Shown: positions 12,660 to 50,807 of the stretch, one piece after another
How the letters are laid out: the number at the start of each line of letters is the position of its first letter
Numbering within the stretch: the first letter of the stretch is position 1
From: an uncultured Planctomycetales bacterium
Lineage (GTDB): Bacteria > Omnitrophota > Gorgyraeia > Zapsychrales > Fredricksoniimonadaceae
Assembly: GCA_964520655.1 (NCBI GenBank)
Contig: CAZFNI010000012.1
Location: 1,917 to 65,916 of the forward strand
DNA length: 64,000 bases
Direction of reading: 5' to 3'
Notes under the pieces: model-generated
What the model was told of the DNA's origin: nothing
Seen by the model: only the letters and a program-made list of their open reading frames with translations
Database searches by the model: none
Made by a program: the position numbers and the translations under genes

Positions 12660-12757
12660 TAGATTATATAGAGATGCGCGTAGTTATAGCTTCTAAATAC
12701 AAAATTATTTTATATTATTAAGATATAGCAACAAGAAAAGAATGGAATATTTTTCGG
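12660..12757 (-). promoter_or_regulatory. AT-rich spacer, probable promoter/5' UTR of the giant repeat-protein gene
   Basis: This is the only intergenic gap (98 nt, strongly AT-rich) between yraN and the giant ORF. No specific -10/-35 elements could be assigned with confidence. Confidence 0.3.
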
Positions 12758-13144
12758 TTATATCCAATTGCAGATAAAAGCGTTCTTCAAATGTCTAATG
12801 TCAGGTCCGGAGCCTGAATGAAGAATAGAAACCACATCAAAAAGGCAAGCAATGCAGGTTGTTTGAAAACATCGTTTAAGGTAAAATTCAGCTAATTTGA
12901 TCAATTTCCGTTGTTTAAAATAATGCACGGCTTCAAACGGCTGGCCACAGGCAATTGAGGCGCGGGTTTTAACTTCGACAAACACAAGCGTCTGATCATC
13001 ACGAGCAATAATGTCGATCTCCCCCATACGGCAGCGGAAATTCCGCTCAACGATCTGGTAACCCAGCTTCGTCAAATATTGACAGGCCGCATCTTCACCG
13101 GATCTTCCAAGATTTTTTCGCGTCATAAGCCCAAAGTTGACCAA
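12758..13144 (-). CDS. yraN: YraN-family (UPF0102) predicted endonuclease
   Basis: 128 aa. GEDAACQYLTKLGYQIVERNFRCRMGEIDIIARDDQTLVFVEVKTR is the characteristic YraN/UPF0102 core. Confidence 0.75.
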   Translation of the reverse strand: MVNFGLMTRKNLGRSGEDAACQYLTKLGYQIVERNFRCRMGEIDIIARDDQTLVFVEVKTRASIACGQPFEAVHYFKQRKLIKLAEFYLKRCFQTTCIACLFDVVSILHSGSGPDIRHLKNAFICNWI

Positions 13145-14253: not shown

Positions 14254-14696
14254 TTCCTCATTAATTGTCCCATGAGCACTTCCTGGGCCTTGATGATCTG
14301 CTCAGTTTTTTTCTCTTGCCATCTTAAATATTCCCTGGCGTTTTCCTGATTTGGCACATTCAAAAGATTCAGCACAGGCTGCGGCGGCTGATAATAAGTT
14401 ATCTTCCCGTTAGCATCAACCATCGGCTCCCGCCAATCGATCAAAGCTTTATCAGCCAAAAGATCAGACTTTTCTTTTTTCTCAAAATACTCCAAATGTT
14501 GTAAATGATAATAATCATTAGCGGAGGCTTTGTAAGGATGAACGATCAATATTACTATAAAGATGAGGGAACAGCAGTTTTGCAACATTGTATGAACCTC
14601 CAGAAGATCCAGGAGAATTCTTCCTCCTTGTTGCTCCGCTCGCCAACGGCATTCTTTGCCACCCAAAACCGGGGATCCTGACCCAACGGCATGCAT
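14250..14696 (-). CDS. Small secreted hypothetical protein (likely true start near 14588)
   Basis: An internal Met begins a signal-peptide-like segment, MLQNCCSLIFIVILIVHPYKASA. The upstream 5' extension overlaps the TraU-like gene out of frame. The mature part is about 90 aa with no recognised motif. Confidence 0.35.
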   Translation of the reverse strand: MHAVGSGSPVLGGKECRWRAEQQGGRILLDLLEVHTMLQNCCSLIFIVILIVHPYKASANDYYHLQHLEYFEKKEKSDLLADKALIDWREPMVDANGKITYYQPPQPVLNLLNVPNQENAREYLRWQEKKTEQIIKAQEVLMGQLMRN

Positions 14697-15310
14697 TTCT
14701 GTTGATCAGGCTCAACCATCTGGATCTTATCCTGCCAGCGGTTAATGGAAAAAAGGATCGGAGCTTGTGAAATATGCCCGCTCATAAGACCTCCGGCGCT
14801 GATACCTCTTAACGCGATCAATGCTGACGATGCCGCAGGACTGTAATGGCTGACAAATCCTGTTCGAGGATACACAGGCCCCCAATTGCCCACAAATTCA
14901 CGAGCAGTTGTCGTCTCTTGACGCCATTGACGGCTGTCCATCTCAGACCTATATCTCAGCCCCACAGCTGTATTCGTCAATGAGCCACATAAGACCATTT
15001 GTTCAATTTGTTTTAATGGAAAATCATACACATGTGCATCATGAAACCGCAGATTACTGCCGCTTAAAGCATTCAAGCTTGCCTTACGAGCGATCGTATG
15101 GATCACCAATGATGGTTCATAATACGAGATCCAAACTCCCGGAATATCCCCCACCATACAGGCCCCATGACTTTTAAGCTGCCAGCAACTTTGGTCAACA
15201 CGCTCAACCGCGTGCACCAGATTGATCCCGTCCCCCTTTATCTCATCCGCAGAATATGCAAGCACATGTGCGGCTAATATAAACCCTATCAGGATAATTA
15301 TCTTTTTCAT
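14555..15310 (-). CDS. traU: TraU-like F-type T4SS periplasmic protein (shortened relative to F-plasmid TraU)
   Basis: 251 aa with a signal peptide. Remembered F-plasmid TraU motifs are present in order: SCWQL (F: ICWSC), GVWISYYEPSLV (F: GLAIGYWEPMAL), HDAHVYDFPL (F: HVHWYKYPL), MVLCGSL (F: TSLGCLEGG) and YRSEMDSRQW (F: YLSEIDPTW). About 70 aa of the F protein are missing. Confidence 0.5.
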   Translation of the reverse strand: MKKIIILIGFILAAHVLAYSADEIKGDGINLVHAVERVDQSCWQLKSHGACMVGDIPGVWISYYEPSLVIHTIARKASLNALSGSNLRFHDAHVYDFPLKQIEQMVLCGSLTNTAVGLRYRSEMDSRQWRQETTTAREFVGNWGPVYPRTGFVSHYSPAASSALIALRGISAGGLMSGHISQAPILFSINRWQDKIQMVEPDQQKCMPLGQDPRFWVAKNAVGERSNKEEEFSWIFWRFIQCCKTAVPSSL

Positions 15311-16170
15311 AACTTCATAATGAAAGCTAATGCGTAAAACGGAGGCACATGACTATCAGGAATGATCGGATGCGTATGCGACTGATTGCCCCCCGTATCT
15401 GAAGTCAATGAACTGATCTGACCTGTCATGACTGGAGAACTGTGACCATCATATCGGCTCCCCAGCCAGGGCGTTTCATTATACGCATGATGGTGGGCTG
15501 GCATCTCCGCGATAGTCAACGCATGTGGCCCTGTTTCACTGCCATGATCGTGAGAAATACTACCGCCGCTTTTTTCTAATTTCCCCTGAAGATTGGTTTT
15601 ACTGACCCCACCCTCATCTTGCCGCGAGCCAACGATAAATTTATCGCGAAGATCCGGTGTACCATTCTGCCCATCACACAAAACCCAACCTAAAGGAATG
15701 CTGGCGATCGACCCAGACCACGCCACGATCACACCGGAAGCAATTTCATCTTGATCATTAGCCCCGGTAACACTACTCACAACATCTCCCGCGAATGACG
15801 CTTGCAGCAAACGCGAATTAATCATTGGCACTAAATTTAACGGCACTTGAACACTGACACTCATTTTTTTCTCATCAAACATCACTTGGTAGGGATGCCC
15901 CCAGGGGTTAAGTAAAGACCACAGCGGACTTAAGTAACCATCTATTTGCATCTGTTTTAAATCCGTTGGCCATTCATGATGATCCCTGTGATACTTTCTG
16001 CCAGCTGCCTGGATAACCCCCACCTCGGCAATTGTTTTCTCACCGGCACGGATCTCGACAGCGCGGACCATCACCGGCAATACCGCCGTTGTCAACAAAG
16101 CAACAATGCCCATGACGATCGCCAACTCAACTAACGAAAAACCATTTTTTCCTAGAATGTCGCGGTCCAT
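15307..16170 (-). CDS. Type IV prepilin-like protein, large (minor pilin or PilV-like tip-adhesin candidate)
   Basis: 287 aa. The N-terminus MDRDILGKNG|FSLVELAIVMGIVALLTTAVLPV is a class III signal peptide with Gly-1, Phe+1 and Glu+5. A large C-terminal globular region follows. Confidence 0.6.
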   Translation of the reverse strand: MDRDILGKNGFSLVELAIVMGIVALLTTAVLPVMVRAVEIRAGEKTIAEVGVIQAAGRKYHRDHHEWPTDLKQMQIDGYLSPLWSLLNPWGHPYQVMFDEKKMSVSVQVPLNLVPMINSRLLQASFAGDVVSSVTGANDQDEIASGVIVAWSGSIASIPLGWVLCDGQNGTPDLRDKFIVGSRQDEGGVSKTNLQGKLEKSGGSISHDHGSETGPHALTIAEMPAHHHAYNETPWLGSRYDGHSSPVMTGQISSLTSDTGGNQSHTHPIIPDSHVPPFYALAFIMKL

Positions 16171-16601
16171 GTCGTGCTCGCTTCATCATAGTTAACTTTT
16201 GACGCGCTATTATTGAAATAGTTACTTAGCTTATCCGCTTCCGTTTTGACCAAACTATTCAAACTAATGTCAAAACGTGTATTATCCACCGGATTGCTGG
16301 AAACATCAAATTTCCCGCCCCAAGGGTTTGATGCGGCTGCATCAAAAGTATCCGGTAATAATTTAGCTGTTTTTAAAGCCTCAACACTGACGCCCGAGAA
16401 ACTTACTTTACCCAATGCCAGGTAACTTTCTGCAGCGCTACGCAATGTCTGCACACTATTTGCCGCGGATTGAACCCTGGCATTATCCCTCAACCCCGCA
16501 GACATAGAGACCGCCAGGATCAATACAGTTAATACCGCAAGACCTATTGCGAGCTCCACCAAAGAAAACGCCCCTGTTGAATTAATATTGATCCGTTTCA
16601 T
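16152..16601 (-). CDS. Type IV prepilin-like protein (probable major pilin)
   Basis: 149 aa. The N-terminus is MKRININSTG(A)FSLVELAIGLAVLTVLILAV, a prepilin-type hydrophobic N-terminal helix. The cleavage site is either G|A (Glu at +6) or A|F (Glu at +5). Confidence 0.6.
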   Translation of the reverse strand: MKRININSTGAFSLVELAIGLAVLTVLILAVSMSAGLRDNARVQSAANSVQTLRSAAESYLALGKVSFSGVSVEALKTAKLLPDTFDAAASNPWGGKFDVSSNPVDNTRFDISLNSLVKTEADKLSNYFNNSASKVNYDEASTTWTATF

Positions 16602-16618
16602 ACTATCCTCCTTGTGTT

Positions 16619-17815
16619 TTAACCTCCAGCGATCTGATTCAAACTGCCGTAAACAGGGATCAGAAACGCAAAGGCAATGGTAACTAAAAATACGGCACCA
16701 ATGATCAATAGTGCCGGTTGAAGCAAAATCACCGCACGGTCTATCTGTTCGTTCACTCGCTTATTTAGATATTCTGACAAATTCAGGCAATACTGAGGAA
16801 GTCTCGCCATTTCCTCTCCGCGACGTATCGTCATCACGATCAGCGGAGAGAAAAATCGATCAGCTCCCAACGACTCCCACAATGTCCCGCCTCCAAAGAT
16901 ATAGTCCCTGCAACCATAAAAATGTCCGCTGACCGCATTGTTGTTATTAGCATGCAGATCGTCGATACCCTTAATGATCGATGTCCCATTACGCATCAGG
17001 ATCGACAGGTTCAAAAAATAGTACGCCAGATCCGCTTCTTTATTTATGCGCCCCCATATGGGTAAACGATAAACAACAAATTCTCGAATTCGTTTATTAT
17101 TGAATATGAACCCAGCAACCGAGACCAACACTGCTCCTATGATCAAAACTAATAATGCACCATATTGCCTCAGCCACAAGGTCGCAGCAATGATCACACC
17201 CGTTGTTCCATGAACGCGCGTTGATTCAGGCAATAACTGAGCTAATCGCGGTACCACATAAACCCCCACAAACAACATGACGGCACATAATAAGCAAAAT
17301 ACGATCGATGGATATACCAACGCCTCTCTTAATCGTCCCGACACTTCCTCCTGACGTTTAAAGTAATGTGCCAGCATCCTCAACGATCCCTTAAGTTCCC
17401 CACTTTGTTCTCCGCTTTTAATAGTCACCGTCACGATCCAGGGAAATGATTTTGTCGATGCAAAAGCGTCTGCCAAACCTTTCCCTTTGCTGACCTCACT
17501 TTTTATCCCTTCTATTGCGCCCATCAAAACTGCTGATAATTGCACGCTGGATACGGATGCCAGTATCTGGTTGATACTCATCCCTGTCTCATGCATATTC
17601 GCCATATCTTCAAAGAATCCCGACATGATCTTGATAGAGATCCGCTTCGCCCTCTTCAACTGAAGAAATGATCGTACCCAATCCATATAAACAATGATCA
17701 CGTCGATCTTATTGTTTTTTAAATAGCCCAAAACGCTTTCCTTATTCCCCTTAATCACTCCAGAGATTTCTTGACCTTGAGGGGTTATGCCTGAATATTT
17801 CCAATATCCCATCAT
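16619..17815 (-). CDS. GspF/PilC-family inner-membrane platform protein
   Basis: 398 aa. It has two repeated cytoplasmic domains and three TM segments, which is the T2SSF architecture. It immediately follows the GspE-like ATPase, with a 4-nt overlap. Confidence 0.8.
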   Translation of the reverse strand: MMGYWKYSGITPQGQEISGVIKGNKESVLGYLKNNKIDVIIVYMDWVRSFLQLKRAKRISIKIMSGFFEDMANMHETGMSINQILASVSSVQLSAVLMGAIEGIKSEVSKGKGLADAFASTKSFPWIVTVTIKSGEQSGELKGSLRMLAHYFKRQEEVSGRLREALVYPSIVFCLLCAVMLFVGVYVVPRLAQLLPESTRVHGTTGVIIAATLWLRQYGALLVLIIGAVLVSVAGFIFNNKRIREFVVYRLPIWGRINKEADLAYYFLNLSILMRNGTSIIKGIDDLHANNNNAVSGHFYGCRDYIFGGGTLWESLGADRFFSPLIVMTIRRGEEMARLPQYCLNLSEYLNKRVNEQIDRAVILLQPALLIIGAVFLVTIAFAFLIPVYGSLNQIAGG

Positions 17816-19419
17816 CCCAGCACCCTCACCGCTTCTTGCGGTGATATTGCCCCTTGTTTGACCATCATTTTTAATTGCTCAAACATCGCCCCCTCTATAC
17901 CATTTTCCCTGACATGTATTTTTATACCGCGAATATCACCCTCCAATAACATGGAATCAACTGGATCACCGCATTCCAAAACGCTAGCCACTACTGTCCG
18001 CCCCTTATAACCGTCATTACATCCAGAACAACCACCAGCAACTGAAACATCCTCTAACTCTTCCACAAATTTAAACTCACTGCTTGTCCACACAACATCC
18101 TGGCAATGCAGTCTCTGCTTACACAAAGGGCAAAGCAGTCTAACCAAGCGCTGAGAAATAATCATGGATAACGTCGAGGCCATATAGGCATACGGAATAC
18201 CGAGATCATGTAATCGCAATACAGCGTCGAACACCTGATTGGCATGCAGCGTTGCAAAAACCTTATGACCTGTCATCGCCGCCCGGATGGCCTCTTGCGC
18301 GGTAAGATCATCCCTGATCTCCCCGATCAGCATGATATTAGGATCATGTCTTAAGAAAGCTCGAACAGCATTACTGAACGTGATCAGCCGTTTGTCATTA
18401 GTCTGTACCTGAGTCATCAGCGTGTGATGCATTTCAACGGGATCCTCAATAGTCACGATCTTGCGCTCAATGGATTTAATATAATTGAGCATGGCATAAA
18501 GCGTCGTTGTCTTGCCGCAACCAGTTGGCCCAACGATCAGCGCCATCCCTTCCGGTTTAGAAAGCATTGACTTGATCCTTTTCCATAAATAATTGGGGTA
18601 TCCAAGAGAGATCAAGTCGATCGAAGATTTATTTCTATCTAACAAACGCAGCACCAGGGAACTGCCATTGACACAGGGTATGTGCGACACCCTGACATCG
18701 ATATTTTCCCCCCTGTTTTGATATGTAAATCTCGCGTCATGTAGACTGCTAAAATCACTAATGGTCACATCAGCCCTGTGAAAAACAATATTAACCAGCC
18801 TCCGCTGGAGATCCGAACGTAATACCCCATACGCATGCAGAATCCCGTCGATGCGTAGTCTTACTTCTAACGCTTTTGCCGAAGCCTCAATATGAATATC
18901 CGTAGCACCTCGTTTAAGCGCATCCTGCATGCAATGCTCAAACCAGGACAAAACATTGTCTTCATTGACACCCCCCCTGCAAGATACCGAATTTTCGTCA
19001 GCTGAGACCTTATCAATAGCCCTGCACAATGGCTCTTCAGCAGCCAGCATAAAACACGCTTTCGTGTTTAACTTATCCTGAATGACATCAATTGCTCCTA
19101 AATTATCACTATACGCCATAACAAAAACTATCCCATCATCGGTCTTTGCCGGAAACACTTTATGCTTAACGATAAAATCTTTTCCTAACGATGTGACCAT
19201 TCCCTTATGCGCTTCAAAATTACCCTTATAAACACCCCAGCCTGCTTGCCTAGCTAATGCAGAGATCATCTGTTCCTCATTTATAAAATCATAATCGGTG
19301 AGCAGCTTTCCCAAACGTTGACGAACTCCATGGTTTTGCAGAGACAGACAAAAATCTAATGTTTTTTCATCTATGAGACCTTCCCTTAGCAAAATATTCC
19401 CTAACCGCTGCCCTTCCAT
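17812..19419 (-). CDS. GspE/PilB-family type II/IV secretion ATPase
   Basis: 535 aa. The N-terminus is a T2SSE_N-like domain (LGNILLREGLIDEKTLDFCLSLQ...). The Walker A is GPTGCGKTT, with Asp and His boxes present. The C-terminus carries a tetracysteine motif, CPLC...C...CSGC. Confidence 0.9.
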   Translation of the reverse strand: MEGQRLGNILLREGLIDEKTLDFCLSLQNHGVRQRLGKLLTDYDFINEEQMISALARQAGWGVYKGNFEAHKGMVTSLGKDFIVKHKVFPAKTDDGIVFVMAYSDNLGAIDVIQDKLNTKACFMLAAEEPLCRAIDKVSADENSVSCRGGVNEDNVLSWFEHCMQDALKRGATDIHIEASAKALEVRLRIDGILHAYGVLRSDLQRRLVNIVFHRADVTISDFSSLHDARFTYQNRGENIDVRVSHIPCVNGSSLVLRLLDRNKSSIDLISLGYPNYLWKRIKSMLSKPEGMALIVGPTGCGKTTTLYAMLNYIKSIERKIVTIEDPVEMHHTLMTQVQTNDKRLITFSNAVRAFLRHDPNIMLIGEIRDDLTAQEAIRAAMTGHKVFATLHANQVFDAVLRLHDLGIPYAYMASTLSMIISQRLVRLLCPLCKQRLHCQDVVWTSSEFKFVEELEDVSVAGGCSGCNDGYKGRTVVASVLECGDPVDSMLLEGDIRGIKIHVRENGIEGAMFEQLKMMVKQGAISPQEAVRVLG

Positions 19420-19420
19420 C

Positions 19421-19951
19421 TTAACCCCCGATCAAAATAACCTTCTCTTTGCCATCTTTTGTTCTGAGCACCGCCTTATCATCATCGATCCTCACTACGG
19501 TCACGTCACCACGAAGCATCTGGCCCGCTTTTGCTGACACTCTTACACTGTGATCCAACAGCAATCCTAGACGTTCATTCCCAATACGAACAATACCTTG
19601 CAGCTTGATAGGAAAATTTTCCGTATCCTGCTCTTTTTTCTCATTCAACATGGACGTAAAATTATCCTCCTGATCTAATTTTTTGATCCTGGAACGCAGA
19701 TCAGCGCGCTGTAGATCAAGATTTAAGAGTTTTATTTCCCGCATCCGCTTGTTTTCCTGATCAATAAAATCGTCTACATCCTGACGATCTGAGCGCACCG
19801 ATCCTTTTGAGACCATCTGGTCCACCATAGACACTTCCTGTGCATACACATTGCTAAACTCAAGAACAAATACCAGCAAACAAACTAATATACTAAGCCC
19901 CATACACACCCCCATTGATCTGCAGCATGTTATCTTTGAACGCCACGTCAT
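19421..19951 (-). CDS. PilP/GspC-like periplasmic pilus-assembly protein (N-terminal TM, coiled coil, C-terminal beta domain)
   Basis: 176 aa. There is one N-terminal TM segment. The C-terminal segment LQGIVRIGNERLGLLLDHSVRVSAKAGQMLRGDVTVVRIDDDKAVLR resembles the PilP/HR domain. The assignment is by architecture only. Confidence 0.35.
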   Translation of the reverse strand: MTWRSKITCCRSMGVCMGLSILVCLLVFVLEFSNVYAQEVSMVDQMVSKGSVRSDRQDVDDFIDQENKRMREIKLLNLDLQRADLRSRIKKLDQEDNFTSMLNEKKEQDTENFPIKLQGIVRIGNERLGLLLDHSVRVSAKAGQMLRGDVTVVRIDDDKAVLRTKDGKEKVILIGG

Positions 19952-20396
19952 TCTCTATGATCGGGAACTGCTGCTGCCATATTTTATAGTGCCTCAAGAT
20001 ACGAAATATCTCCTCAGGATCCTGAATTTTGAAGAATGAGATCCTGAAAGCAAACCGCTTGATCCCTTCAAAGACCATTGAAGTGTTTTTTATATCAAAA
20101 TCACTATTGGAGATTATCTCGACCTTCATGTTATACCCATAGGTATCCGCATCATGGGTAATTCGAGCAAGGAACCTTGAATAATATTGATCGACTCTTG
20201 ATAAAATTATATCTTCCCTGGATTGAAGAATATCCAATGTTCGTTGTGCATGCAAAATTCTCTCCTTACTCCCCATAATTAGATTTTGTAAATGAAAGCA
20301 TTCTTTTAATATTGGGTAACATGCAAACACAACAATTAGTCCAATCAATAAGCTGCTGATCAAAGTCTTTTTCATCACATCACCTATTCTTTCCAA
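19893..20396 (-). CDS. PilO-like bitopic pilus-assembly protein
   Basis: 167 aa. It has a single N-terminal TM segment (LISSLLIGLIVVFACYPI) followed by a periplasmic domain. The assignment rests on position and architecture only. Confidence 0.3.
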   Translation of the reverse strand: MERIGDVMKKTLISSLLIGLIVVFACYPILKECFHLQNLIMGSKERILHAQRTLDILQSREDIILSRVDQYYSRFLARITHDADTYGYNMKVEIISNSDFDIKNTSMVFEGIKRFAFRISFFKIQDPEEIFRILRHYKIWQQQFPIIENDVAFKDNMLQINGGVYGA

Positions 20397-21538
20397 GATA
20401 ATTCGATCTTTGTCCCCATCTGTTCATTGAAACGTTCTGACGAAATGTTGGCTTTAGACCATTTCCCCTCTCTTATAAATTCCTCCCCTAGGTTCACACT
20501 GCCTGGAACTATTACTGCGTTCATCCAAAAATTACCTCGTTCCTTCTGAGCCACCATAAATTCTTTGATCAAATATCCCTTGGGGACATGAAGATAAAAA
20601 TCCCAGAAAATATCGTCCCACTGAGAATTCTTTAATGAATCCAAATAATCTACAAACTTATTCTTGTATGTGTTCTCCAGCTCACGATTCAATACGCTGA
20701 CTTGCTCCTGGGCATGAACATATTCCTCCTTTAAACGTTTTTCTTTTATCCAGAAAAGACCAACTATTATCCCGCCCAAAATAACACTACCCATGAACAT
20801 GCATCCCTGGAATATCCAATTAAGGCGCATTTGTTTTCTTTTTCTTTGTGCAAGTTCATTTGGAAGAACATAATTATTCGTAAACTTAGCAACCTTTAAT
20901 CCGTCCAATGCAGGATTAACTTCACCAATATCTAGCACTTCTTCGTGTCTTGCCAGTTTTAAATCCACACATGCAGAAAGCCAATCCCTATTATTGCTAA
21001 CAATCACATATGATGATCTCTCCTCTTGATCTTGAGAAAAGATCAACCATGAACGTTTAATCTCCTCGATCATATATTCCCTATCCCGCACAATGATCTG
21101 CCGTGATTCCGAGAAAATCGCACTCCTAAAGATCGTAACCACCATTTTTGATCCCAATGCATCAATAACGATCACAGCTCTATTGTCATTAAGGAATCCT
21201 TTATGTCTTAAATATGCCCGAACGGCCACTGGATATGGAACCAGAACGACAACAGCAGCAGGACTAAAAAATTTGTAAATCTCCTCAATAGCCGCCTGTG
21301 GAACACTCAGCCTTAACGCCTCACGCGCCGTGATCTGTTCCTCAATGAACATTACTTGTGCGTCAACAACCTGCCTTTCTTCATTCTCCTTTTGGACGCG
21401 TTGTACAGAAACACCTAAACATGCCACAAATACTTCTTTTATATGGTTCTTATATTTCCGTGTAAATTCATCTTTGGGAAGTGTTTCAACTCCCTGACCT
21501 GTCCCTACTAACAATAATTCATCAAATATAATTCTCAT
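20384..21538 (-). CDS. PilM/PilN-like fusion (cytoplasmic domain + TM + periplasmic coiled coil). It resembles R64 PilO in size and position.
   Basis: 384 aa. About 240 aa are cytoplasmic. One TM segment (WIFQGCMFMGSVILGGIIVGLFWI) follows, then a coiled-coil periplasmic tail. It sits between the secretin and the PilO/PilP-like genes. Confidence 0.35.
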   Translation of the reverse strand: MRIIFDELLLVGTGQGVETLPKDEFTRKYKNHIKEVFVACLGVSVQRVQKENEERQVVDAQVMFIEEQITAREALRLSVPQAAIEEIYKFFSPAAVVVLVPYPVAVRAYLRHKGFLNDNRAVIVIDALGSKMVVTIFRSAIFSESRQIIVRDREYMIEEIKRSWLIFSQDQEERSSYVIVSNNRDWLSACVDLKLARHEEVLDIGEVNPALDGLKVAKFTNNYVLPNELAQRKRKQMRLNWIFQGCMFMGSVILGGIIVGLFWIKEKRLKEEYVHAQEQVSVLNRELENTYKNKFVDYLDSLKNSQWDDIFWDFYLHVPKGYLIKEFMVAQKERGNFWMNAVIVPGSVNLGEEFIREGKWSKANISSERFNEQMGTKIELSWKE

Positions 21539-21539
21539 T

Positions 21540-23060
21540 TCATCCTTTTCGCGGCGTTATAAAAATGATCAGCTCTGTTTTATTGTCCCGACGCACTTCA
21601 TATTCAAATAACCTTCCCAAGAACGGAACTTTAGAGAGCAGTGGCACATTCTGTTTGGAATGCTCTTTAGCTGATGTGATAAGCCCACCGATCGCTACAG
21701 TTTGCCCCTCTTTTAACTTAACCATGGTATTAAGTGATTTTGTTGTTGTTTGGGGAGCTTCTATCAGACTATTACCCGAGACAATGGTTCGAATATTATC
21801 AATGCTTGTCACAACAGGGGTCACTGACAGAAAAATATCATCACCTGCGATATTTGCCAGTAGTCGCATTGTTACCCCTTCCTGAACTTGGGAGGTTGAT
21901 ACGGAAGTGACAGAACCTGTCTGAGTTGTTTCTATCGTTGACCGATCCACATAACTTTGGGTTGAACCAACCTGAATAACTGCAACCTGATTATTTAAGA
22001 TCTTCACCCTTGGCTGAGACACCACTTCCACTTCCCCCTGCTTAGATAACGCATCGATTGCCATTTTAAAACCATTTGACGATAGACCTGATCCCTCTTT
22101 GCCCCCATCCATATTAAATCTGAGGAAATTTCCACTGCTAAAATTGTTTGAGGCAAAATTGCTGACGAGAGCAATACTATTTAATGTTTTCAGATCACCT
22201 GCCAGTACATTCCAATCAATACCAAAACGATTGTCATCATTTAATCTCACTTCCACAACCTTCACATCCACCTCAATCTGGATAGAGACACGGGCATTTA
22301 GATCCTCAAAATACCTCCTTAATCTCTCTAATTTCACGGGCGTATCCGTTACAACAACCATCCCCGCTGGTTTATTAAGTGATATTTTGGCTGAATCAGA
22401 AGTGAGACCTTTCACATTGGCCAGAACATCATCCCAAAACGAAAGCCCAGCGTTCTGGCTGCTGACAACGATCTTTGTCCCTAGCTTCACCTGCTGATTC
22501 TGACTAGAACCATTCTGATTCTCCCCTGACCGCACAAAAGACTCGTTGCTGGTTGTATCATCAAAACTCTGAACGATCGGCGGTATTAACACCCTAAAAA
22601 TCTGTGTCTGTTCCGCTAAAACAGTCATTTGCCTATCTTCAATCTTGTATCCATATCCCAAAGAATAAAGAATTGTATTAAATACACTGGCGATCGTCAT
22701 ATTTTGCGCATCAATATTGGTCTTTTTGTCCTCAACACCTGGCCCCAACAACACATTAATACCAATAGATTGTGCTAGAGGTTTTAATACACTTGTTAAA
22801 GTCACATCATGGGCATTTATAGATACAACCTTCATCCATTCGTTATTTTCTGTATCAGATATAATTGAAACATCTTTTGAAAAACCATCATCGATCAATA
22901 GCGCAGGTTTCTGCGTGTGGGCCGTTTGCTTGCGCCATTCCTCATTGATTATTTCTACCCTTGCCTTGGTACTCAACGGTTCCGGAAGCCCCCAGATGAT
23001 TCGGCACACTGGTAATGTCAGCAACAGTGTTAAAATCATGATCTTCTGAATTTGGTACAT
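21540..23060 (-). CDS. Secretin (PilQ/GspD/PilN-R64 family outer-membrane channel)
   Basis: 506 aa with a signal peptide. The C-terminus has the canonical secretin domain: SQPRVKILNNQVAVIQVG...GVTMRLLANI...VTPVV...TMVKLKEGQTVAIGGLI...NVPLLSKVPFLGRLFEYEVRRDNKTELIIFITPR. Confidence 0.8.
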   Translation of the reverse strand: MYQIQKIMILTLLLTLPVCRIIWGLPEPLSTKARVEIINEEWRKQTAHTQKPALLIDDGFSKDVSIISDTENNEWMKVVSINAHDVTLTSVLKPLAQSIGINVLLGPGVEDKKTNIDAQNMTIASVFNTILYSLGYGYKIEDRQMTVLAEQTQIFRVLIPPIVQSFDDTTSNESFVRSGENQNGSSQNQQVKLGTKIVVSSQNAGLSFWDDVLANVKGLTSDSAKISLNKPAGMVVVTDTPVKLERLRRYFEDLNARVSIQIEVDVKVVEVRLNDDNRFGIDWNVLAGDLKTLNSIALVSNFASNNFSSGNFLRFNMDGGKEGSGLSSNGFKMAIDALSKQGEVEVVSQPRVKILNNQVAVIQVGSTQSYVDRSTIETTQTGSVTSVSTSQVQEGVTMRLLANIAGDDIFLSVTPVVTSIDNIRTIVSGNSLIEAPQTTTKSLNTMVKLKEGQTVAIGGLITSAKEHSKQNVPLLSKVPFLGRLFEYEVRRDNKTELIIFITPRKG

Positions 23061-23400
23061 ATTTCTCCTTTTGTTGGATTACAAAATCCTCAGATTCTTT
23101 GATCCATTCTCCTGGCTTGATCATGACCAGTTCTTTATGTTCTGGAATAAATGCCCCCTGATCAATATGCCCAGGAATACTGATCTCTTGAACGAGAGGA
23201 GCACTCCAATGATAATCTGGCATAACCTTATAATGACCTTCCTCAAGTATCTGTGATACTTGCTGTTTTACAGCATGTTGATAACTCTTAACATTCATAC
23301 TCTGTTCTGAGAATCTTGCTGTAGCACATCCCGCAAACATCAAAATGAATATCCCCCAGAAATTATTGCAGCCCATATGGATACTCCTTGGCACATACAT
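22942..23400 (-). CDS. Small lipoprotein (PilL-like position, immediately upstream of the secretin)
   Basis: 152 aa. It has a probable lipobox, ILMFAGC. Its 3' end overlaps the secretin start by ~100 nt, so either boundary may be different. Confidence 0.4.
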   Translation of the reverse strand: MYVPRSIHMGCNNFWGIFILMFAGCATARFSEQSMNVKSYQHAVKQQVSQILEEGHYKVMPDYHWSAPLVQEISIPGHIDQGAFIPEHKELVMIKPGEWIKESEDFVIQQKEKYVPNSEDHDFNTVADITSVPNHLGASGTVEYQGKGRNNQ

Positions 23401-25819
23401 TTATGGCCTCAATAAGATCACCGTTCAAAGATTCCACCTTCTGCCACAAATAATCATTATTCCTTGGTTCTGAATTAGCTACCCAATACAAGAATGGATC
23501 AGGAACAAGACGAATGACGCCAGTAGAATTCTCCGACATCACTAAACACTCAGAATATTGGCCTTTAATTGTTTTAATGGATTTAAGTAATTGGATTTTT
23601 TCATCATCGAACGACAATGTCTCTTTAAGCAAATCAATAACTGCTGGATCTTGTTTGAGAAAGATCTTATTGGCCGCATTCGCAATGATCGCCATCCCGC
23701 TTTCTACTCGTGTTAGATCAGCAATCTCCTGTGTTATCGCTATGGTTGAGCAGCGGTATTTTCGGAATGTTTTAAAAGCATTGGTGATAAAATCCGACGT
23801 GTTCTTGACTTTTAATAATGACCACGCCTCATCTATCAATAAATATTTTCGTTTGATCCTCATTGAATCACTGGACACAAAATTTGTCATAAAGAACATT
23901 AGATTCAATAAAACGGCTAACTGCAAATCAGGATATGAACTCAAATTGGCCAATTCAAATACCACAAAACGGGTATTTATCGTGAATTGATTTGGACCGT
24001 CAAAAAATCGGCCATACGGCCCCTTGTTTGTAAACGGGGTCAATCGCAATGCCAGTGTCGGCCCCATCAATGAATTTATACCGCAGCGTTCATTAAAATA
24101 ACTGTCATTAAGAACATTCGTTACATCACTTAAGAACACCTCTGATTTCTCCTTATTATTCTTATAGGCCGTCATAATTGCTTGCTGCAATAACCCTTCC
24201 TCTTCCCGGCTCAAACGGTATCGGTCATCACCACCGCTGGCCATTTGCGATAGCAACGATAAAAGGAAAGATATATTATCTGGCGTGGGTTCATGAGCAA
24301 ATGGGTTGATTGTGACAGGATCGTTCAAATAAAGACTAATGTATTGGCCATTTAAAACCTGGCAAAGCTTCTTATAAGAATCACCCTTATCCAAAACAAA
24401 AAAATGACTGCCTAAACGATCTGCCTGAAGTATAAAATCATTGATAAAAAAACTTTTTCCGGATCCAGATGCTCCAACAACAATTCCGTGCGGGTTAATA
24501 TTCGAATCAAACATATCAAAGAAAACAACTTCATCCCTGCGGTTAGAATACATTTGTGCCGGAGTTGATGTTCCTTGAAATGCACCGAAGATCGGAAGCA
24601 TATCTGCGACATTAATTGACAACAATCTCCTGGATCTTCTAATAAAATTCTCATAATAGGGATCAAAATTAAGCGGCAAACACGTCAGGAATAATGATGC
24701 CCCTATCAGGTCCTCCTTTATCCCGCCGCATTGATATCGGTTTAGACCATTAATGATCTGATCACCAAGATTTTCAACCTCCTCTGCACTTTCCCCAAAT
24801 ACAACCCAATGGAACCTGGCGTTAATTATCTTTTGTCCTCCCTGATACATAGCCCTAACAACTTCATCCAGTTCCTCCTTTTTCGCAACCTCCTCAACCG
24901 ACTTGTCTCCCAACCAATTCTCCTTATGCATGAATGCAAAGTCCTTCTGGATCTTGATCCGCCTTAAAGCATCTTGAGGATCGGCTGACGTCATATTCAC
25001 CACAAAAAGCATAGACTTGGCCTGGTCAAGCAAACTGAATGGTTGAGCCCCTTGAAATTCCTTAGTAAACATGCCGATCGTTGTATGGGCAGGCATTTCT
25101 TTTAAGCTCACAACCCTCATGTATTGGCCCTCGAAATTAAAACCCTTACCACTTGCTTGCGGTGAATTAAAAAGAACCTGGTCTCTTATATTCAGATTAT
25201 TTTCCAGCCTGACATCTGGCACGCTCATGGAACGTTTGGGATTCATTAATTGATATAATAATTGTGTTAGCTCCTGCTCTAAGACAGGCTTAACAGATAC
25301 GCCGGAAGTCTTGAGTAGCCCTCCCAAAAGAGAAGTATGTTGCTCAAATACCTTTTTATGCTCACACAACTCATTTTCAATCCCTTGTGAATGCTTTTTC
25401 CACACAGGGAAGAATCTGATCGTGATATACACATCAATTGCTCTCGTAAAACAGCGCTTCCCATTGTTTTTCTGACGTTTGGTTGCATAAAAAGATGTTG
25501 TCGTTACACCTTGAGCATTCTCTTGGAATTGATCATATTGATCATTCTTGTCCTTACTATTAACATTGACATTCATGATCATTTGACAGGCTAAACGGTC
25601 ATGCGGGAGCCTGGTCAAAACAGTCTGCCAATGCTGCACCAGAATATTCATATCCCTTTGTGTTCTTCCTTCTGAATCAACAAGATTTATCTTCCAAACT
25701 TTTCCCATACTCCCATCAGATAATAAACAAACGTCATCGCAAAACTCAACATACGGCAAAAGATCGACAAAACTCATGCCTTCAGAGAACAATGCCTCTA
25801 TATTCTTGTAACGCAACAC
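23363..25819 (-). CDS. traC: TraC/VirB4-family T4SS ATPase
   Basis: 818 aa. The Walker A is GIVVGASGSGKSFFIND. The Walker B / 'DEAW' motif is RKYLLIDEAWSLL. The size and domain order are VirB4-like. Confidence 0.8.
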   Translation of the reverse strand: MLRYKNIEALFSEGMSFVDLLPYVEFCDDVCLLSDGSMGKVWKINLVDSEGRTQRDMNILVQHWQTVLTRLPHDRLACQMIMNVNVNSKDKNDQYDQFQENAQGVTTTSFYATKRQKNNGKRCFTRAIDVYITIRFFPVWKKHSQGIENELCEHKKVFEQHTSLLGGLLKTSGVSVKPVLEQELTQLLYQLMNPKRSMSVPDVRLENNLNIRDQVLFNSPQASGKGFNFEGQYMRVVSLKEMPAHTTIGMFTKEFQGAQPFSLLDQAKSMLFVVNMTSADPQDALRRIKIQKDFAFMHKENWLGDKSVEEVAKKEELDEVVRAMYQGGQKIINARFHWVVFGESAEEVENLGDQIINGLNRYQCGGIKEDLIGASLFLTCLPLNFDPYYENFIRRSRRLLSINVADMLPIFGAFQGTSTPAQMYSNRRDEVVFFDMFDSNINPHGIVVGASGSGKSFFINDFILQADRLGSHFFVLDKGDSYKKLCQVLNGQYISLYLNDPVTINPFAHEPTPDNISFLLSLLSQMASGGDDRYRLSREEEGLLQQAIMTAYKNNKEKSEVFLSDVTNVLNDSYFNERCGINSLMGPTLALRLTPFTNKGPYGRFFDGPNQFTINTRFVVFELANLSSYPDLQLAVLLNLMFFMTNFVSSDSMRIKRKYLLIDEAWSLLKVKNTSDFITNAFKTFRKYRCSTIAITQEIADLTRVESGMAIIANAANKIFLKQDPAVIDLLKETLSFDDEKIQLLKSIKTIKGQYSECLVMSENSTGVIRLVPDPFLYWVANSEPRNNDYLWQKVESLNGDLIEAINVCAKEYPYGLQ

Positions 25820-26226
25820 TATTTAATCTCCTCTTCTACTTCTTCTTTTTTGGGGATAACGACCGAAGAGCTTGACCTTTGCACTTCTTGATCATCGAAC
25901 CACCTTGGCCCCTGGACCATCACATAGACCCAATGTCCAGATACTAAAACGCCTGTATCATCAACAGAACGGTGATTGGGAACCCAAACTTTCTTTACTA
26001 CAGGGGGTTTGATAACAGGAACATAAGGTTTCACATACCCAAACACTTTTTGCTCCCTAAAACGCTCTGCCACAAATTTTTCTACATCTTCCTTAGCTTC
26101 TCGCATGCTATGATGATACATATCTTCCATAGGCACTCTGCTGTTAGAACTCTGCCTGATCTGCCGATGCCCGCAGCCATTAATTAAGAACATCAATGTG
26201 ATTAACATCACGACGTAATAGACCAT
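25819..26226 (-). CDS. TraV-like (VirB7-like) outer-membrane lipoprotein
   Basis: 135 aa. It has a lipobox, LINGC. It is small and Pro/Val-rich, and lies between the TraB and TraC homologues as in F-like tra operons. Confidence 0.35.
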   Translation of the reverse strand: MVYYVVMLITLMFLINGCGHRQIRQSSNSRVPMEDMYHHSMREAKEDVEKFVAERFREQKVFGYVKPYVPVIKPPVVKKVWVPNHRSVDDTGVLVSGHWVYVMVQGPRWFDDQEVQRSSSSVVIPKKEEVEEEIK

Positions 26227-27337
26227 CGATCATCACTCCTTTTTGAACGACGAAATTAATACTAGTGCCACTGGGCACATGCACAGCAGGTATGATATTT
26301 TGCGTTTGTTTATCGTAATACTGCGACAACTCAGCGGCGCTTTTGGAAAGTCCGGAAAACATGGCGTATTTACCAGCATCCCCCGTGACATTACGTTCAA
26401 CATTACCAAATCGTCCAGATACAGATGTCTGCTCGCTATCAGCCAACGCAGATGACCCTCCAGCCATAAATCCGCCCATAAAAGCCAGTGCCAAAGCTTT
26501 TCCTGTACTGTGCACCAACTGTCCATGTATCCCTAACTCTCCATGACGGTCCGTTACATAACCAATCTCCTGTTCTTTCTCAAAAACCTTACCGTCAGGT
26601 TGAACATAAGAAATCGCAATGATCTGGATTAAGGCACGTTGAGAATTGATGTCCCCTATAGCCTTCCCCAAAGCAAATGCACCCTTTAACGGTATACGCG
26701 CATTGTTGGGCCCGTAAAATGCCTCATCAAGCGTGATCAATACTGGTAATGGACTATTGACATCAACTGACGCATATACTCCTGTTAACAATGTACCTTT
26801 ACAGAAAGAACCGATCGGTAAATACACATCATACTTTTTATTAATAACCCCTCTTACCGGAGCAATCTTCAATTCATAAGATGATTCTTTTGAAATATCA
26901 GAAGAAATTGAAAGCTTACCCAGATCTTCTTTAATTGTTGACAATGTGCCACTGATGTTGAGCTGTTCTTTTTTGTATTGCTCATCTGCCTGTTTTATAC
27001 CTTTGATCTGTTCCTCCATCTCTTTTATCCTGTCTTCAAAATCATAATAATTCTTTTGGAGGCCTTTCATAACTTCCAAACGTTCTGTGTCTCCAACTTT
27101 GACACCTTCATCATCAATGCGCAGTTGCGTACCCTGCTGTTTCGACTTTTCTAAAGAATGTTCATCGCTAGACCATATATAAGATCCAACAACCACTATC
27201 AACAAGACCACACCATAAATGATTAGCGGATTCTTATGCTGAATCGACTTGAGTATTTCAAATAGTTCGTTCATTTGCCTGTATGATAAATATTGTTGTG
27301 TGATCTCTTGCTTGACCCTCTGGCGCAAGGACATCAT
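26180..27337 (-). CDS. traB: TraB/VirB10-family T4SS protein
   Basis: 385 aa. The order is N-terminal TM, coiled coil, then a C-terminal beta-barrel domain. VirB10-like motifs are present: GTLLTGVYASVDVNSPLPV, IPLKGAFALGKA and IPAVHVPSGTSINFVV. Confidence 0.65.
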   Translation of the reverse strand: MMSLRQRVKQEITQQYLSYRQMNELFEILKSIQHKNPLIIYGVVLLIVVVGSYIWSSDEHSLEKSKQQGTQLRIDDEGVKVGDTERLEVMKGLQKNYYDFEDRIKEMEEQIKGIKQADEQYKKEQLNISGTLSTIKEDLGKLSISSDISKESSYELKIAPVRGVINKKYDVYLPIGSFCKGTLLTGVYASVDVNSPLPVLITLDEAFYGPNNARIPLKGAFALGKAIGDINSQRALIQIIAISYVQPDGKVFEKEQEIGYVTDRHGELGIHGQLVHSTGKALALAFMGGFMAGGSSALADSEQTSVSGRFGNVERNVTGDAGKYAMFSGLSKSAAELSQYYDKQTQNIIPAVHVPSGTSINFVVQKGVMIDGLLRRDVNHIDVLN

Positions 27338-27914
27338 CCAAGGATGCAGCGGCTATGATATTCTCAAGACTTAATTGATCTAGAGGGACATTGACCCTAC
27401 GATCAGATTTATTCCTTGCCGTTATGCCATACACCCTAAATTGAGGAAAATCATACGCCAACTCAAAATCTAAAGTAATGTGTGAGTTTTCAAGTACTAT
27501 TTGGCGCTGAACCTTGATCTTTACTGCCCCGGCTGGCTCATTTCCCTGCAGCAAAATTTTCATGATATCGATTGCACTAATCCCGCTCTGATATTTACTA
27601 GAGTTCACACTATTGCCATTGACAACCACATTAAGATCATGCTGTGTAGAAACCTTTAAATTGATCGGATAAGATTTTCCTGATACTCCTTTAACAAAGA
27701 CGTCTGAGGGCGCTTCCGTTTTAGGCAAAATAAAAAGGGAATTATCCATGGCCTCAACTAGTAGGGAATCACTCGCCCCTCCCTTGATTACTTGGGCAAT
27801 ATTCTCTGGAAATGAGACCTCCGAAACTTTACCAACTTCTACATGAACACTTGTTACTTCTTCAGCAAATACTGTAGTAGCCAACATTAAAATAGCGATA
27901 AGGAGTGCATTCAT
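27258..27914 (-). CDS. TraK-like (VirB9-like) periplasmic/OM core protein
   Basis: 218 aa with a signal peptide and a predicted beta-rich fold. It is positioned between the TraE and TraB homologues. Confidence 0.4.
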   Translation of the reverse strand: MNALLIAILMLATTVFAEEVTSVHVEVGKVSEVSFPENIAQVIKGGASDSLLVEAMDNSLFILPKTEAPSDVFVKGVSGKSYPINLKVSTQHDLNVVVNGNSVNSSKYQSGISAIDIMKILLQGNEPAGAVKIKVQRQIVLENSHITLDFELAYDFPQFRVYGITARNKSDRRVNVPLDQLSLENIIAAASLDDVLAPEGQARDHTTIFIIQANERTI

Positions 27915-28567
27915 ATACTTAGCTCCTGATCAATTGACGCCACGATCAAACCCAAAGGATTCTGTTCCGTTGGAGCCACTACATTGATAAGAATCTTAAA
28001 GGTTATATCCTGCTCTTTTACCATTTGCTTCCCCATGAATAACGTCTTTTTAGTCTTGATGGTCACTTTATAATCACCTCTTTCTTTCTTCACCGAAGGC
28101 TCATCAATGACAGTCAATAATGAAGATATTTCACTTTGTTTTATCTCCTCTAGATCTTTACTTAAGCGCGTGCGCGTTTTTGACAATACATATGGCGACA
28201 TAAATCGCTGCGCGCGTGCATAAGCATTTGACGCCGTCACCGGATTGAAATTATTCCAATCCATGATCCATTTGGACACAAAGGTCGATACAACCATAGA
28301 CATATCCGATATTGGCAAAGCCACCCCTGCTTGATATACATTAGGAACATAATAAATAGATTTAGGCTTAACCACTGTCCACATAATGATCCCCGCAAAA
28401 GCCAAACTGACAATCCCAAGCAATAGACAAACGTAAAGCATCCGCTGATACATCAATTCTGATCTTGTCCATCGTTCCACAAACTGAGTACTTTTAGAAT
28501 GTTGTGCTTGCATATGATCCATAATGAGAAACTCCCCTAGGTGACGGAGGCAAACCTGGAAGTCCAA
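27911..28567 (-). CDS. TraE-like (VirB8-like) bitopic T4SS protein (probable true start at an internal Met, ~180 aa)
   Basis: It has a single N-terminal TM segment (LYVCLLLGIVSLAFAGIIMW) followed by a periplasmic domain. It is F-TraE-sized when started at the internal Met. The upstream extension overlaps traL. Confidence 0.45.
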   Translation of the reverse strand: MDFQVCLRHLGEFLIMDHMQAQHSKSTQFVERWTRSELMYQRMLYVCLLLGIVSLAFAGIIMWTVVKPKSIYYVPNVYQAGVALPISDMSMVVSTFVSKWIMDWNNFNPVTASNAYARAQRFMSPYVLSKTRTRLSKDLEEIKQSEISSLLTVIDEPSVKKERGDYKVTIKTKKTLFMGKQMVKEQDITFKILINVVAPTEQNPLGLIVASIDQELSI

Positions 28568-28784
28568 GGCCCTGAGAATATAACCAATGCATCAAATAGC
28601 CAGGCGGTTTTCCACTTTTCAATCTGGATATAAGTATCCAACATATGATCCCTATCGCTCCGGGAACATAAGGTTCAAACAACAAACCGCCAATACCAAT
28701 GACCAATACCACCGCCGCAAGGTCCTCTTGTTCTAGTCCAAAGAATGTTTGTGGCTTATCTATTGTTCGATAGCATGTGTGCAT
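28494..28784 (-). CDS. traL: TraL-like (VirB3-like) T4SS protein
   Basis: 96 aa. YRTIDKPQTFFGLEQEDLAAVVLVIGIGGLL parallels the F TraL YRFPKTLD..IIGLPLDEAIPAAVLLL. KSGKPPGYLMHWLY parallels KKGRSPYWLYNYCY. Confidence 0.55.
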   Translation of the reverse strand: MHTCYRTIDKPQTFFGLEQEDLAAVVLVIGIGGLLFEPYVPGAIGIICWILISRLKSGKPPGYLMHWLYSQGLGLPGLPPSPRGVSHYGSYASTTF

Positions 28785-28787
28785 GTA

Positions 28788-29069: not shown

Positions 29070-29070
29070 C

Positions 29071-30261: not shown

Positions 30262-30413
30262 AAACGAGGAAAAACTATTGGGGGAGGTTATTACACTATC
30301 TGACTTAGATTCGTTGGGAGAAACGAAATATTAACTAATAAGCAAATTATATTGATTATTACACAAATGTCAAGAAATTTAATATCATTTGCGCAAAATA
30401 AAAAGAAGCCTTT
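30262..30413 (-). promoter_or_regulatory. AT-rich 152-nt intergenic region, probable promoter of the T4SS/T4P super-operon
   Basis: This is the only sizeable gap upstream of the 21-gene block. It is AT-rich (…aaatttaatatcatttgcgcaaaataaaaag…). Confidence 0.3.
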
Positions 30414-50731: not shown

Positions 50732-50807
50732 GCGCCTGTAGCTCAATTTTGGATAGAGCGAGACACTCCTAACGTCTAGGCTGACCGTTCGATTCGGTCC
50801 AGGCGCA
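50732..50807 (+). tRNA. tRNA-Arg (anticodon CCT)
   Basis: A hand-folded cloverleaf fits. The acceptor stem is GCGCCTG/CAGGCGC. The D-arm is GCTC-AATTTTGGATA-GAGC. The anticodon stem is AGACA/CGTCT with one A-C mismatch. The anticodon loop is CT-CCT-AA. The T-arm is GACCG-TTCGATT-CGGTC. The discriminator is A. There is no encoded CCA. Confidence 0.75.

Follow-up and report, generated by a model that had tools for sequence, protein, structure and literature searches.

A compact TraU-family gene near the end of a predicted chromosomal operon of type IV secretion and type IVb-like pilus genes in an uncultured Omnitrophota-lineage bacterium

We analyzed a 64,000-nucleotide (nt) stretch of DNA, referred to below as the window, from an uncultured Planctomycetales bacterium whose GTDB lineage lies within the Omnitrophota (NCBI assembly GCA_964520655.1, contig CAZFNI010000012.1, positions 1,917 to 65,916 of the forward strand). 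Detailed inspection revealed that a gene encoding a compact protein of the TraU family is the 18th in a series of 21 genes, all placed on the reverse strand (30261 to 12758), in which neighbouring genes overlap or are separated by no more than 17 nt. This tightly packed set is predicted to form one co-transcribed chromosomal operon. The gene order is: a TraG_N gene, a VirB2-like pilin gene, traL-E-K-B-V-C, a series of pilN-O-P-Q-R-S-V-like genes, traU, two genes designated X and Y, and yraN (Table 1; gene starts are those of the longest open reading frames (ORFs), except where stated). As judged from the predicted products, the operon comprises three blocks: (i) the channel of a type IV secretion system (T4SS) resembling the F and G mating-pair formation types (MPF_F and MPF_G), (ii) a type IVb-like pilus and (iii) a terminal TraU-X-Y-YraN cassette.

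The T4SS genes are arranged as in the F plasmid (traA-like, L, E, K, B, V, C ... U; compared with NC_002483), and the pil genes, in pilN-to-pilV order, are located between traC and traU, where F has trbI and traW. The traU-like gene lies directly 3′ of the genes of the PilS-like and PilV-like prepilins, as stated in the original prediction from this sequence, and the PilV stop and TraU start overlap in an ATGA junction; an identical overlap joins the stop of Y to the start of yraN. The prediction also stressed that the gene follows the pilus genes and is not adjacent to traC. This is correct, but the position is not anomalous, as the F order is kept and the pil genes are inserted into it.

The TraU-like ORF starts with ATG and encodes 251 amino acids (aa). 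Its homology to TraU, previously proposed from five collinear motif matches, was confirmed by the Pfam profile PF06834 (E 3.8e-16; 59.8 bits, gathering cut-off 26.5), which matches in two stretches, the better of them aligning ORF residues 140-244 with profile positions 193-305 of 306. The two more specific NCBIfam models gave significant E values (approximately 1e-6 each), but scores far below their cut-offs, namely 27.6 bits versus 298 for NF010297 (F TraU) and 26.6 bits versus 188.35 for TIGR03756 (PFL_4710, the TraU of MPF_G), the latter being the second profile proposed for verification. The protein is therefore a member of the TraU superfamily, but an equivalog of neither. In a BLASTP comparison, ORF residues 2-242 align with residues 3-327 of the 330-aa F TraU (from NC_002483) at 22% identity (E 8e-8), i.e. 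practically end to end. A profile of seven members (the ORF and its six closest relatives) was also compared using hhalign, which returned a probability of 94% (E 1.4e-7) against F TraU; with a TIGR03756 protein encoded on a Methylophaga plasmid, the probability was 97.3% (E 1.7e-11). At least five motifs occur in the same order in the alignments of the ORF with F TraU: GxxIxY[YW]EP, FHxxHxYxxPL, YxSExD, GxxGxxYPxxGxVS and CxPxG...W...WRxxxC. Taken together, these matches identify the product as a genuine, though very divergent and compact, relative of TraU.

The protein had been described as shortened, and it is indeed 79 residues shorter than F TraU. Both termini align, and the shortfall is made up of internal gaps of approximately 22, 20, 33 and 12 residues; the ORF is therefore compact owing to internal deletions, not to truncation at either end. 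Its size is also not exceptional among its relatives. A word-indexed search of 5.8 billion proteins retrieved only six TraU relatives, all of 234-262 aa, and an exhaustive profile search yielded, at E <=1e-3, 235 cluster representatives that grade into one another (16 of them at E <=1e-30), with typical lengths of 230-340 aa. In a neighbour-joining tree the ORF is placed within a short-form clade (234-308 aa), apart from F TraU. Since its closest relatives are equally short, the reduced length is normal for the clade. The relatives P0001-P0014, as far as checked, are all annotated as Pfam TraU. No plasmid matched positions 12000-30000 in a megablast search, and the only plasmid sequences recovered with the TraU ORF by tblastn encode TIGR03756/TraU proteins (24-31% identity). 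A scan of viral contigs revealed no relative.

The N-terminus of the ORF product (MKKIIILIGFILAAHVLAYS, followed by AD) is a typical hydrophobic Sec signal ending AYS/AD. The protein contains six cysteines, five of which occupy columns that are at least 90% conserved in an alignment of 88 family members. These features are consistent with a Sec-exported, disulfide-containing protein with a predicted periplasmic location; F TraU has likewise been described as a disulfide-bonded periplasmic protein (PMC7555446). With the 88-member alignment, AlphaFold2 produced a confident single-domain model (predicted local distance difference test score (pLDDT) 89.6, predicted template modelling score 0.86), in contrast to a pLDDT of 30.6 when only 7 sequences were used. 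Searches of PDB sequences found no TraU.

Table 1. Predicted features of the operon, and toxin-antitoxin genes flanking related loci. Positions refer to the window, except in the last row, where they refer to the loci named.
Feature	Position	Strand	Evidence and remarks
Candidate operon promoter	30346..30373	(-)	TTGACA-16-TATAAT, perfect sigma-70 consensus, ~85 nt 5′ of first gene
TraG_N/VirB6-like polytopic membrane protein, 396 aa	29071..30261	(-)	first gene; Pfam TraG_N E 6.4e-8, 32.4 bits, below cut-off 36.1
VirB2/TraA-like pilin candidate, 93 aa	28788..29069	(-)	signal peptide and two hydrophobic segments; kept in L011 and L012
TraL (VirB3-like)	28494..28784	(-)	TIGR02762 32.2 bits, above cut-off 30.95
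TraE/VirB8-like	27911..28567	(-)	weak: Pfam DUF2895 E 1.4e-3, TIGR02761 TraE E 5e-4; position
TraK/VirB9-like	27258..27914	(-)	weak: DUF3438 E 1.7e-4; TIGR03749, VirB9, TraK_Ftype
TraB/VirB10-like	26180..27337	(-)	Pfam TrbI E 5.6e-21; best NCBIfam model F-type TraB, E 2e-21
TraV-like lipoprotein	25819..26226	(-)	Pfam TraV 24.2 bits, above cut-off 21; lipobox LINGC
TraC/VirB4 ATPase	23363..25819	(-)	Pfam P-loop_TraG E 1.2e-40, TraC_F_IV
Probable lipoprotein, 152 aa, traC/secretin interval	22942..23400	(-)	lipobox FAGC; in all relatives examined
Pilus secretin (PilN/MshL-like)	21540..23060	(-)	Pfam Secretin E 1.8e-34
Three genes at PilO/PilP positions (384, 167, 176 aa)	19421..21538	(-)	one hydrophobic segment each; kept in relatives
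Pilus assembly ATPase (PilQ position; GspE/PilB family)	17812..19419	(-)	Pfam T2SSE E 1.2e-94
Pilus inner-membrane platform protein (PilR position; GspF family)	16619..17815	(-)	Pfam T2SSF E 7.1e-37
PilS-like major prepilin	16152..16601	(-)	weak Pfam PilS, Bundlin, N_methyl; N-terminus MKRININSTGAFSLVELAIG; 62-79% identity to relatives
PilV-like prepilin	15307..16170	(-)	N_methyl/TIGR02532 at residues 8-31, TIGR02532 21.3 bits, above 16.3
Compact TraU-family exported protein, 251 aa	14555..15310	(-)	signal peptide, 6 cysteines, PF06834
X, exported orphan, 112 aa	14250..14588	(-)	probable start ATG 14588, preceded by GGAGG; 34-nt overlap with traU end
Y, exported orphan, 376 aa	13123..14253	(-)	signal peptide; always after TraU/X
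YraN (UPF0102) PD-(D/E)XK nuclease	12758..13126	(-)	last operon gene; Pfam UPF0102 E 1.5e-30
Toxin-antitoxin flanks	L001 12520-13106; L005 12665-13176; L012 2934-4999; L021 2644-3637		

The related loci used for comparison, cited below by their L or P numbers, are metagenomic contigs or metagenome-assembled genomes (MAGs) throughout. The array running from traC through the pil genes to TraU-X-Y-YraN was found in independent Logan, ENA, JGI and NCBI assemblies, with TraU identities of 48-63%. The gene order of the window recurs in at least five independent lineages, and TraU identity among the lineages sharing the whole array ranges from 48 to 93%. The full array from TraG_N onwards was seen in L012; the only sequences retrieved when TraG_N was used as the query were two short, almost identical contigs. 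Of the named relatives, the nearest is a Candidatus Omnitrophota MAG (63% identity in TraU, 82% in TraC) and the second is a MAG that carries the label uncultured Planctomycetales; these labels suggest that the window derives from an Omnitrophota-like bacterium of the PVC superphylum. TraU, X, Y and YraN are linked in approximately 10 lineages (including L001, L004, L005, L007, L014, L016, L017 and L022), and the genes located 3′ of this cassette differ in all of them. The arrays of L017 and the P0013 contig again end with X, Y and YraN, with a Thioredoxin_2 gene between TraU and X in the latter, while L019 and L021 contain TraU and Y without YraN. The genes located 5′ also vary: in the window they encode a tetratricopeptide repeat protein and an ATP-binding cassette (ABC) transporter, whereas L011 has ribonucleotide reductase and ferrochelatase at this place and L012 has toxin-antitoxin pairs. 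Toxin-antitoxin pairs of several kinds (HicAB, nucleotidyltransferase/HEPN-like, RelE/Phd-like, Gp49/helix-turn-helix and MazE) are found time and again beside the cluster in the relatives, and they suggest that its place is in variable chromosomal regions.

The T4SS block contains the whole MPF_F core set (TraL, E, K, B, V, C and G), arranged as in F. TraL and TraV exceed the cut-offs of their models, TraC and TraB are best matched by F-type models but remain below the cut-offs, and the matches of TraE, TraK and TraG_N are weak. In the case of TraC, the F-type model TIGR02746 is the best (E 4e-110; 369 bits against a cut-off of 567), compared with 147 bits for the MPF_G TraC model. Homologues of TraG_N occupy the equivalent position in L011 and L012, and no family match was obtained for the 93-aa VirB2/TraA-like candidate. 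With predicted equivalents of VirB2, B3, B4, B6, B7, B8, B9 and B10, the block constitutes a complete minimal channel. It is a mosaic of MPF_F and MPF_G, in which TraC, TraL and TraB are more F-like, while TraU and the weak TraE and TraK matches lean towards MPF_G. The 152-aa probable lipoprotein encoded at the 3′ end of this block had no family match; its gene sits where F has trbI, and R64 pilL/pilM.

The second block contains the elements expected of a type IVb pilus, namely a secretin, a PilQ-type ATPase, a PilR platform protein and PilS/PilV pilins, both with N_methyl matches, in pilN-to-pilV order. At the family level the assignment fails: the secretin scores higher with MshL (216.7 bits) than with the type IVB PilN model TIGR02520 (136.6 bits versus 287.65), below the cut-off in both cases, and the prepilin leaders are short (approximately 10-11 residues) rather than long. 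None of the three genes at the PilO/PilP positions had a family match, and the pilus cluster contains no gene for a prepilin peptidase. The C-terminus of the PilV-like prepilin resembles phage tail-collar proteins (Collar PF07484, E 1.2e-3), which suggests that this pilin is a candidate receptor-binding tip adhesin. In L019, tblastn places the PilV of the window on positions 383-1282, where a gene of 187 aa (725-1288), located directly 5′ of TraU, shows a clear Collar match.

The G+C content at third codon positions (GC3) is 0.34-0.44 for the genes between TraG_N and PilO and 0.43-0.50 for those between PilQ and YraN (end genes included), compared with 0.51-0.58 for the housekeeping genes around the operon. 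The step in GC3 inside the operon lies near the point at which the arrays of some relatives are split (L014 and L016 start just 5′ of PilQ). The candidate promoter, located in the 152-nt gap 5′ of TraG_N, is the only 12/12 consensus match between positions 12000 and 31500 (19.5 kb); it is a match to the consensus alone, and the total number of promoter-like sites does not exceed that of shuffled sequences.

Both X and Y have signal peptides and are conserved over the related loci that carry them. The overlap of X with traU, which amounts to 34 nt in the window, was called at approximately 40 nt in L001 and L005. A suspected likeness of X to the N-terminal region of F TraF received no support from hhalign, and comparisons of X with TrbB and with the proteins flanking TraU in MPF_G were negative. 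For Y, hhalign gave nothing significant against F TraH, TraN or TraW, and the match to a 402-aa protein flanking TraU on a Thermovibrio plasmid was likewise not significant. The best hhalign result for Y (E 0.018) was with the MPF_G protein at the TIGR03755 position, and the TIGR03755 model matched one Y family member at E 0.34. Both values are below significance and could at most be taken as hints.

No ORF of 100 aa or more in the window encodes a relaxase, a type IV coupling protein (T4CP), an integrase or a transposase, and no relaxase, T4CP or integrase is encoded on the fetched flanks of L001, L008, L011 and L012. The only tRNA gene of the window, at 50732, lies 20 kb from the operon. Within the window, therefore, neither the pair of relaxase and T4CP that marks conjugative elements nor the integrase or attachment site of an integrative and conjugative element (ICE) is present. 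Elsewhere the window, including the flanks of the operon, carries genes of the housekeeping type, which encode an MsbA-like ABC transporter, LpxB, BatA-D/MoxR, MetH, FeoAB, PPDK, PanB, a sigma-70 factor and a class II aminoacyl-tRNA synthetase. A very large ORF of 3197 aa (3066-12659, reverse strand), beginning 98 nt 3′ of the operon, encodes a Gly/Thr/Ser-rich protein (17.5% Gly) with a signal peptide and without any Pfam domain. Partial homologues of it are encoded a few genes 3′ of the TraU cassette in L017 (36% identity over 173 aa) and L021 (30% over 297 aa). Preprints on Omnitrophota reportedly describe giant proteins adjoining pilus or secretion genes.

The above comparisons establish the homology of TraU, its predicted export, the structure of the operon and the conserved linkage of the gene. 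The explanation that we favour, with moderate confidence, is that the compact TraU belongs to a combined T4SS and pilus operon and forms, with the exported orphans X and Y, a periplasmic accessory assembly serving the channel after contact. The fibre of PilS and PilV, with its tail-collar domain, would supply the contact or adhesion, as do the PilV adhesins of R64 and TP114; TraU, X and Y would then stabilise or gate the envelope-spanning channel following surface contact, so that the substrate could pass. Such an assembly is proposed because of the analogy with F TraU and its TraH/TraN partners, and with IceU and the TIGR03755 protein. Published work describes TraU and IceU as periplasmic or envelope-located proteins with TraH/TraN as a partner, which are required less for the synthesis of the pilus than for transfer (PMC7555446; PMC10018362).

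Several observations speak against this explanation. None of the periplasmic proteins of F (TraW, TrbC, TraF, TraH, TraN) had a Pfam or NCBIfam match in the operon. Of the two partners proposed for TraU, X has no match in Pfam, NCBIfam or PDB, or by hhalign, and Y has none in Pfam, NCBIfam or PDB. The modules are also separable. The arrays of L014/L015 and L016 consist of a PilP-like gene followed by PilQ, PilR, PilS, PilV, TraU, X, Y and YraN, and no T4SS genes are located 5′ of them (in L014 the genes at this position encode UvrB and ThiC). In L022 the TraU-X-Y-YraN cassette stands alone, 3′ of SpoVG, without adjoining pilus or T4SS genes. Conversely, L011 (3962-18118; 54% identity in TraC) contains TraG_N to TraC and PilN to PilR, followed by a response regulator gene, and its array lacks pilins, TraU, X, Y and YraN. 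The constant partners of TraU are therefore neither traC nor the pilins; the invariant unit is TraU with Y, usually accompanied by X and YraN. As the cassette occurs without an adjacent T4SS and the T4SS without the cassette, TraU is not demonstrably a T4SS subunit. The view that the two modules are functionally integrated, put forward in the original prediction, accordingly finds support in the co-oriented, overlapping operon and in the gene order kept in at least five lineages, and is weakened by their separability in relatives. In the window itself, it is plausible that the T4SS and the pilus are functionally integrated.

Import of DNA is a serious alternative because yraN is co-operonic with these genes, no T4CP or relaxase gene is located nearby and the T4SS resembles ComB in its composition (VirB2, B3, B4, B6-B10). 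In such a competence-like machine, for which Helicobacter ComB combined with pilus-mediated DNA capture provides the model, the T4SS and pilus would import DNA, TraU, X and Y would carry it through the periplasm and YraN would resolve a recombination intermediate. A preprint reports that the natural transformation of diderm bacteria depends on YraN, the nuclease partner of ComM (bioRxiv 10.1101/2024.02.06.579203), and F TraU is classed with DNA transfer, not with pilus synthesis (PMC7555446). The YraN of the window, whose gene ends the operon and is coupled to Y by the ATGA overlap, retains the catalytic motifs GEIDII and FVEVK, and the linkage of TraU, X, Y and YraN persists in spite of the differing 3′ neighbours. 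On the other hand, yraN is a widespread core gene, and the linkage could reflect operon lock-in after an insertion 5′ of it; L019 and L021 dispense with YraN, and no TraU-family protein is known in DNA uptake. Of the genes associated with transformation, moreover, only yraN is present, and ComEC, ComEA, DprA and ComM are encoded neither in the window nor on the fetched flanks. We consider DNA uptake unlikely on this evidence, and it is equally doubtful whether TraU-X-Y-YraN represents an unrecognised, vertically inherited Omnitrophota-like cassette that couples a channel derived from conjugation and the pilus to recombination, in a novel type of contact- or pilus-dependent machine for the acquisition of DNA. 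If this were so, TraU would work in the import of DNA rather than its export, possibly on prey or host cells.

The separability of the modules also leaves room for the idea that the cassette serves the type IV pilus instead of the T4SS, e.g. with TraU as a periplasmic assembly or stabilisation factor of the PilS/PilV fibre and its adhesin. TraU is located directly 3′ of a PilV-like gene in the window and in L001, L005, L007, L014, L016, L017, L018 and L019; L014 and L016 combine PilQ-R-S-V with the cassette and have no T4SS genes 5′, and the segment from PilQ to YraN differs in GC3 from that preceding it. This role is nevertheless quite improbable, given that L022 has no pilin or pilus genes near its cassette, that L004 lacks PilV, that known type IV pili do without a factor of this kind and that all TraU-family proteins characterised so far are part of a T4SS (PMC4027160). 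Finally, the operon might be the remnant of a decaying integrated conjugative element that has lost its relaxase, coupling protein and integrase, with the TraU-like gene as a relic that no longer has a function. The absence of these three genes from the window, a GC3 lower than that of the housekeeping genes and the toxin-antitoxin pairs beside the cluster in relatives would fit such an origin. Decay is, however, very unlikely because the ORFs are intact and are conserved across far-diverged lineages: all 21 are tightly coupled, the array is kept without frameshifts in at least five lineages with TraU identities down to 48%, and the cysteines and motifs are nearly invariant across the TraU family. 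There is also no attachment-site tRNA near the operon.

TraU is required for conjugation of F, and to our knowledge neither a structure nor a mechanism has been established for it. A natural variant shorter by approximately 80 residues marks the conserved core of the protein and gives a confident predicted model. The genomic setting carries more weight than the size of TraU: a conserved chromosomal T4SS, with pilus genes inside its operon and without a relaxase or coupling protein nearby, and a TraU firmly linked with two exported orphans and with YraN, the nuclease that has lately been connected with natural transformation. Omnitrophota are uncultured, ultra-small bacteria that are thought to be predatory or parasitic, and a dedicated contact or transfer machine would bear on how they interact with other cells. 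The operon would also provide a testable link between machinery of the conjugation type and that of the transformation type. In the literature searched, including surveys of Omnitrophota, we found no description of this operon or of the TraU-X-Y-YraN cassette. Pairs of a T4SS and a type IVb pilus are already known from IncI plasmids and PAPI-1-type ICEs; what we did not find in the papers searched are pilus genes located inside a tra operon, the chromosomal setting without a relaxase or coupling protein nearby, and the TraU-X-Y-YraN cassette.

Among known systems, the F plasmid (MPF_F) shares with the window a TraU that is homologous over its whole length, has the same order of motifs, carries a signal peptide, is rich in cysteine and is encoded 3′ of traC in an array of F order. 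F TraU is longer (330 versus 251 aa; 22% identity) and has about 10 cysteines, compared with 6 in the ORF. The F system is plasmid-borne and encodes TraW, TrbC, TraF, TraH, TraN, TraD and TraI, none of which is recognisable in the window, whereas the system described here is chromosomal, with a pilus module between traC and traU. ComB of Helicobacter pylori consists of equivalents of VirB2, B3, B4 and B6-B10. It is similarly chromosomal and without a coupling protein or relaxase (in the window, within 64 kb), but it is of the MPF_T type and lacks a TraU, a type IV pilus and a linked yraN. The tra island of Protochlamydia amoebophila is also a chromosomal F-like T4SS with traU, found in a bacterium of the Planctomycetes-Verrucomicrobia-Chlamydiae group; it is described as a genomic island with direct-repeat flanks and potentially functional conjugative DNA transfer, and the description mentions neither a type IV pilus embedded in it nor a YraN cassette (PMC548262).

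The IncI plasmids R64 and TP114 (MPF_I) resemble the window in the pairing of a conjugation-type T4SS with a pilus of pilN-O-P-Q-R-S-V order. Their minor pilin PilV is an adhesin that chooses the partner cell (PMC4027160; PMC9045228), and the pilin at the PilV position in the window bears the tail-collar-like domain. The differences are that the T4SS is MPF_I in the plasmids and F/G-like in the window, that the so-called TraU of R64 is a VirB4 homologue unrelated to the TraU family (PMC4027160), and that the cluster of the window has short pilin leaders and lacks a prepilin peptidase, a gene at the PilT position and a shufflon. The pilus ATPase of the window shares approximately 33% identity with its best plasmid match.

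Elements of the MPF_G family can carry a type IVb pilus cluster, as exemplified by PAPI-1. In these elements the pilus cluster is separate, whereas in the window the pilus genes lie inside the T4SS operon, with no integrase, relaxase or TraD. The TraC, TraL and TraB of the window score better with F-type models, and X and Y are not detectably related to TIGR03755 or the protein encoded next to it. On the other hand, the IceU/TIGR03756 proteins of MPF_G elements (ICEclc, ICEHin1056 and the PAPI-1 type) are the best profile match of the ORF, including the C-terminal W-R-x-x-Q-C-C. IceU of ICEclc is envelope-located and essential for transfer, and its gene is followed by those of a large exported protein (TIGR03755) and of a small protein of approximately 120 aa (PMC10018362). 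A thioredoxin-like gene is located beside TraU/IceU in ICEclc (PMC10018362), as in the P0013 contig, where it also recalls TrbB/TraF of F. In its composition, and in that respect alone, the IceU cassette of ICEclc is reminiscent of the predicted TraU-X-Y cassette.

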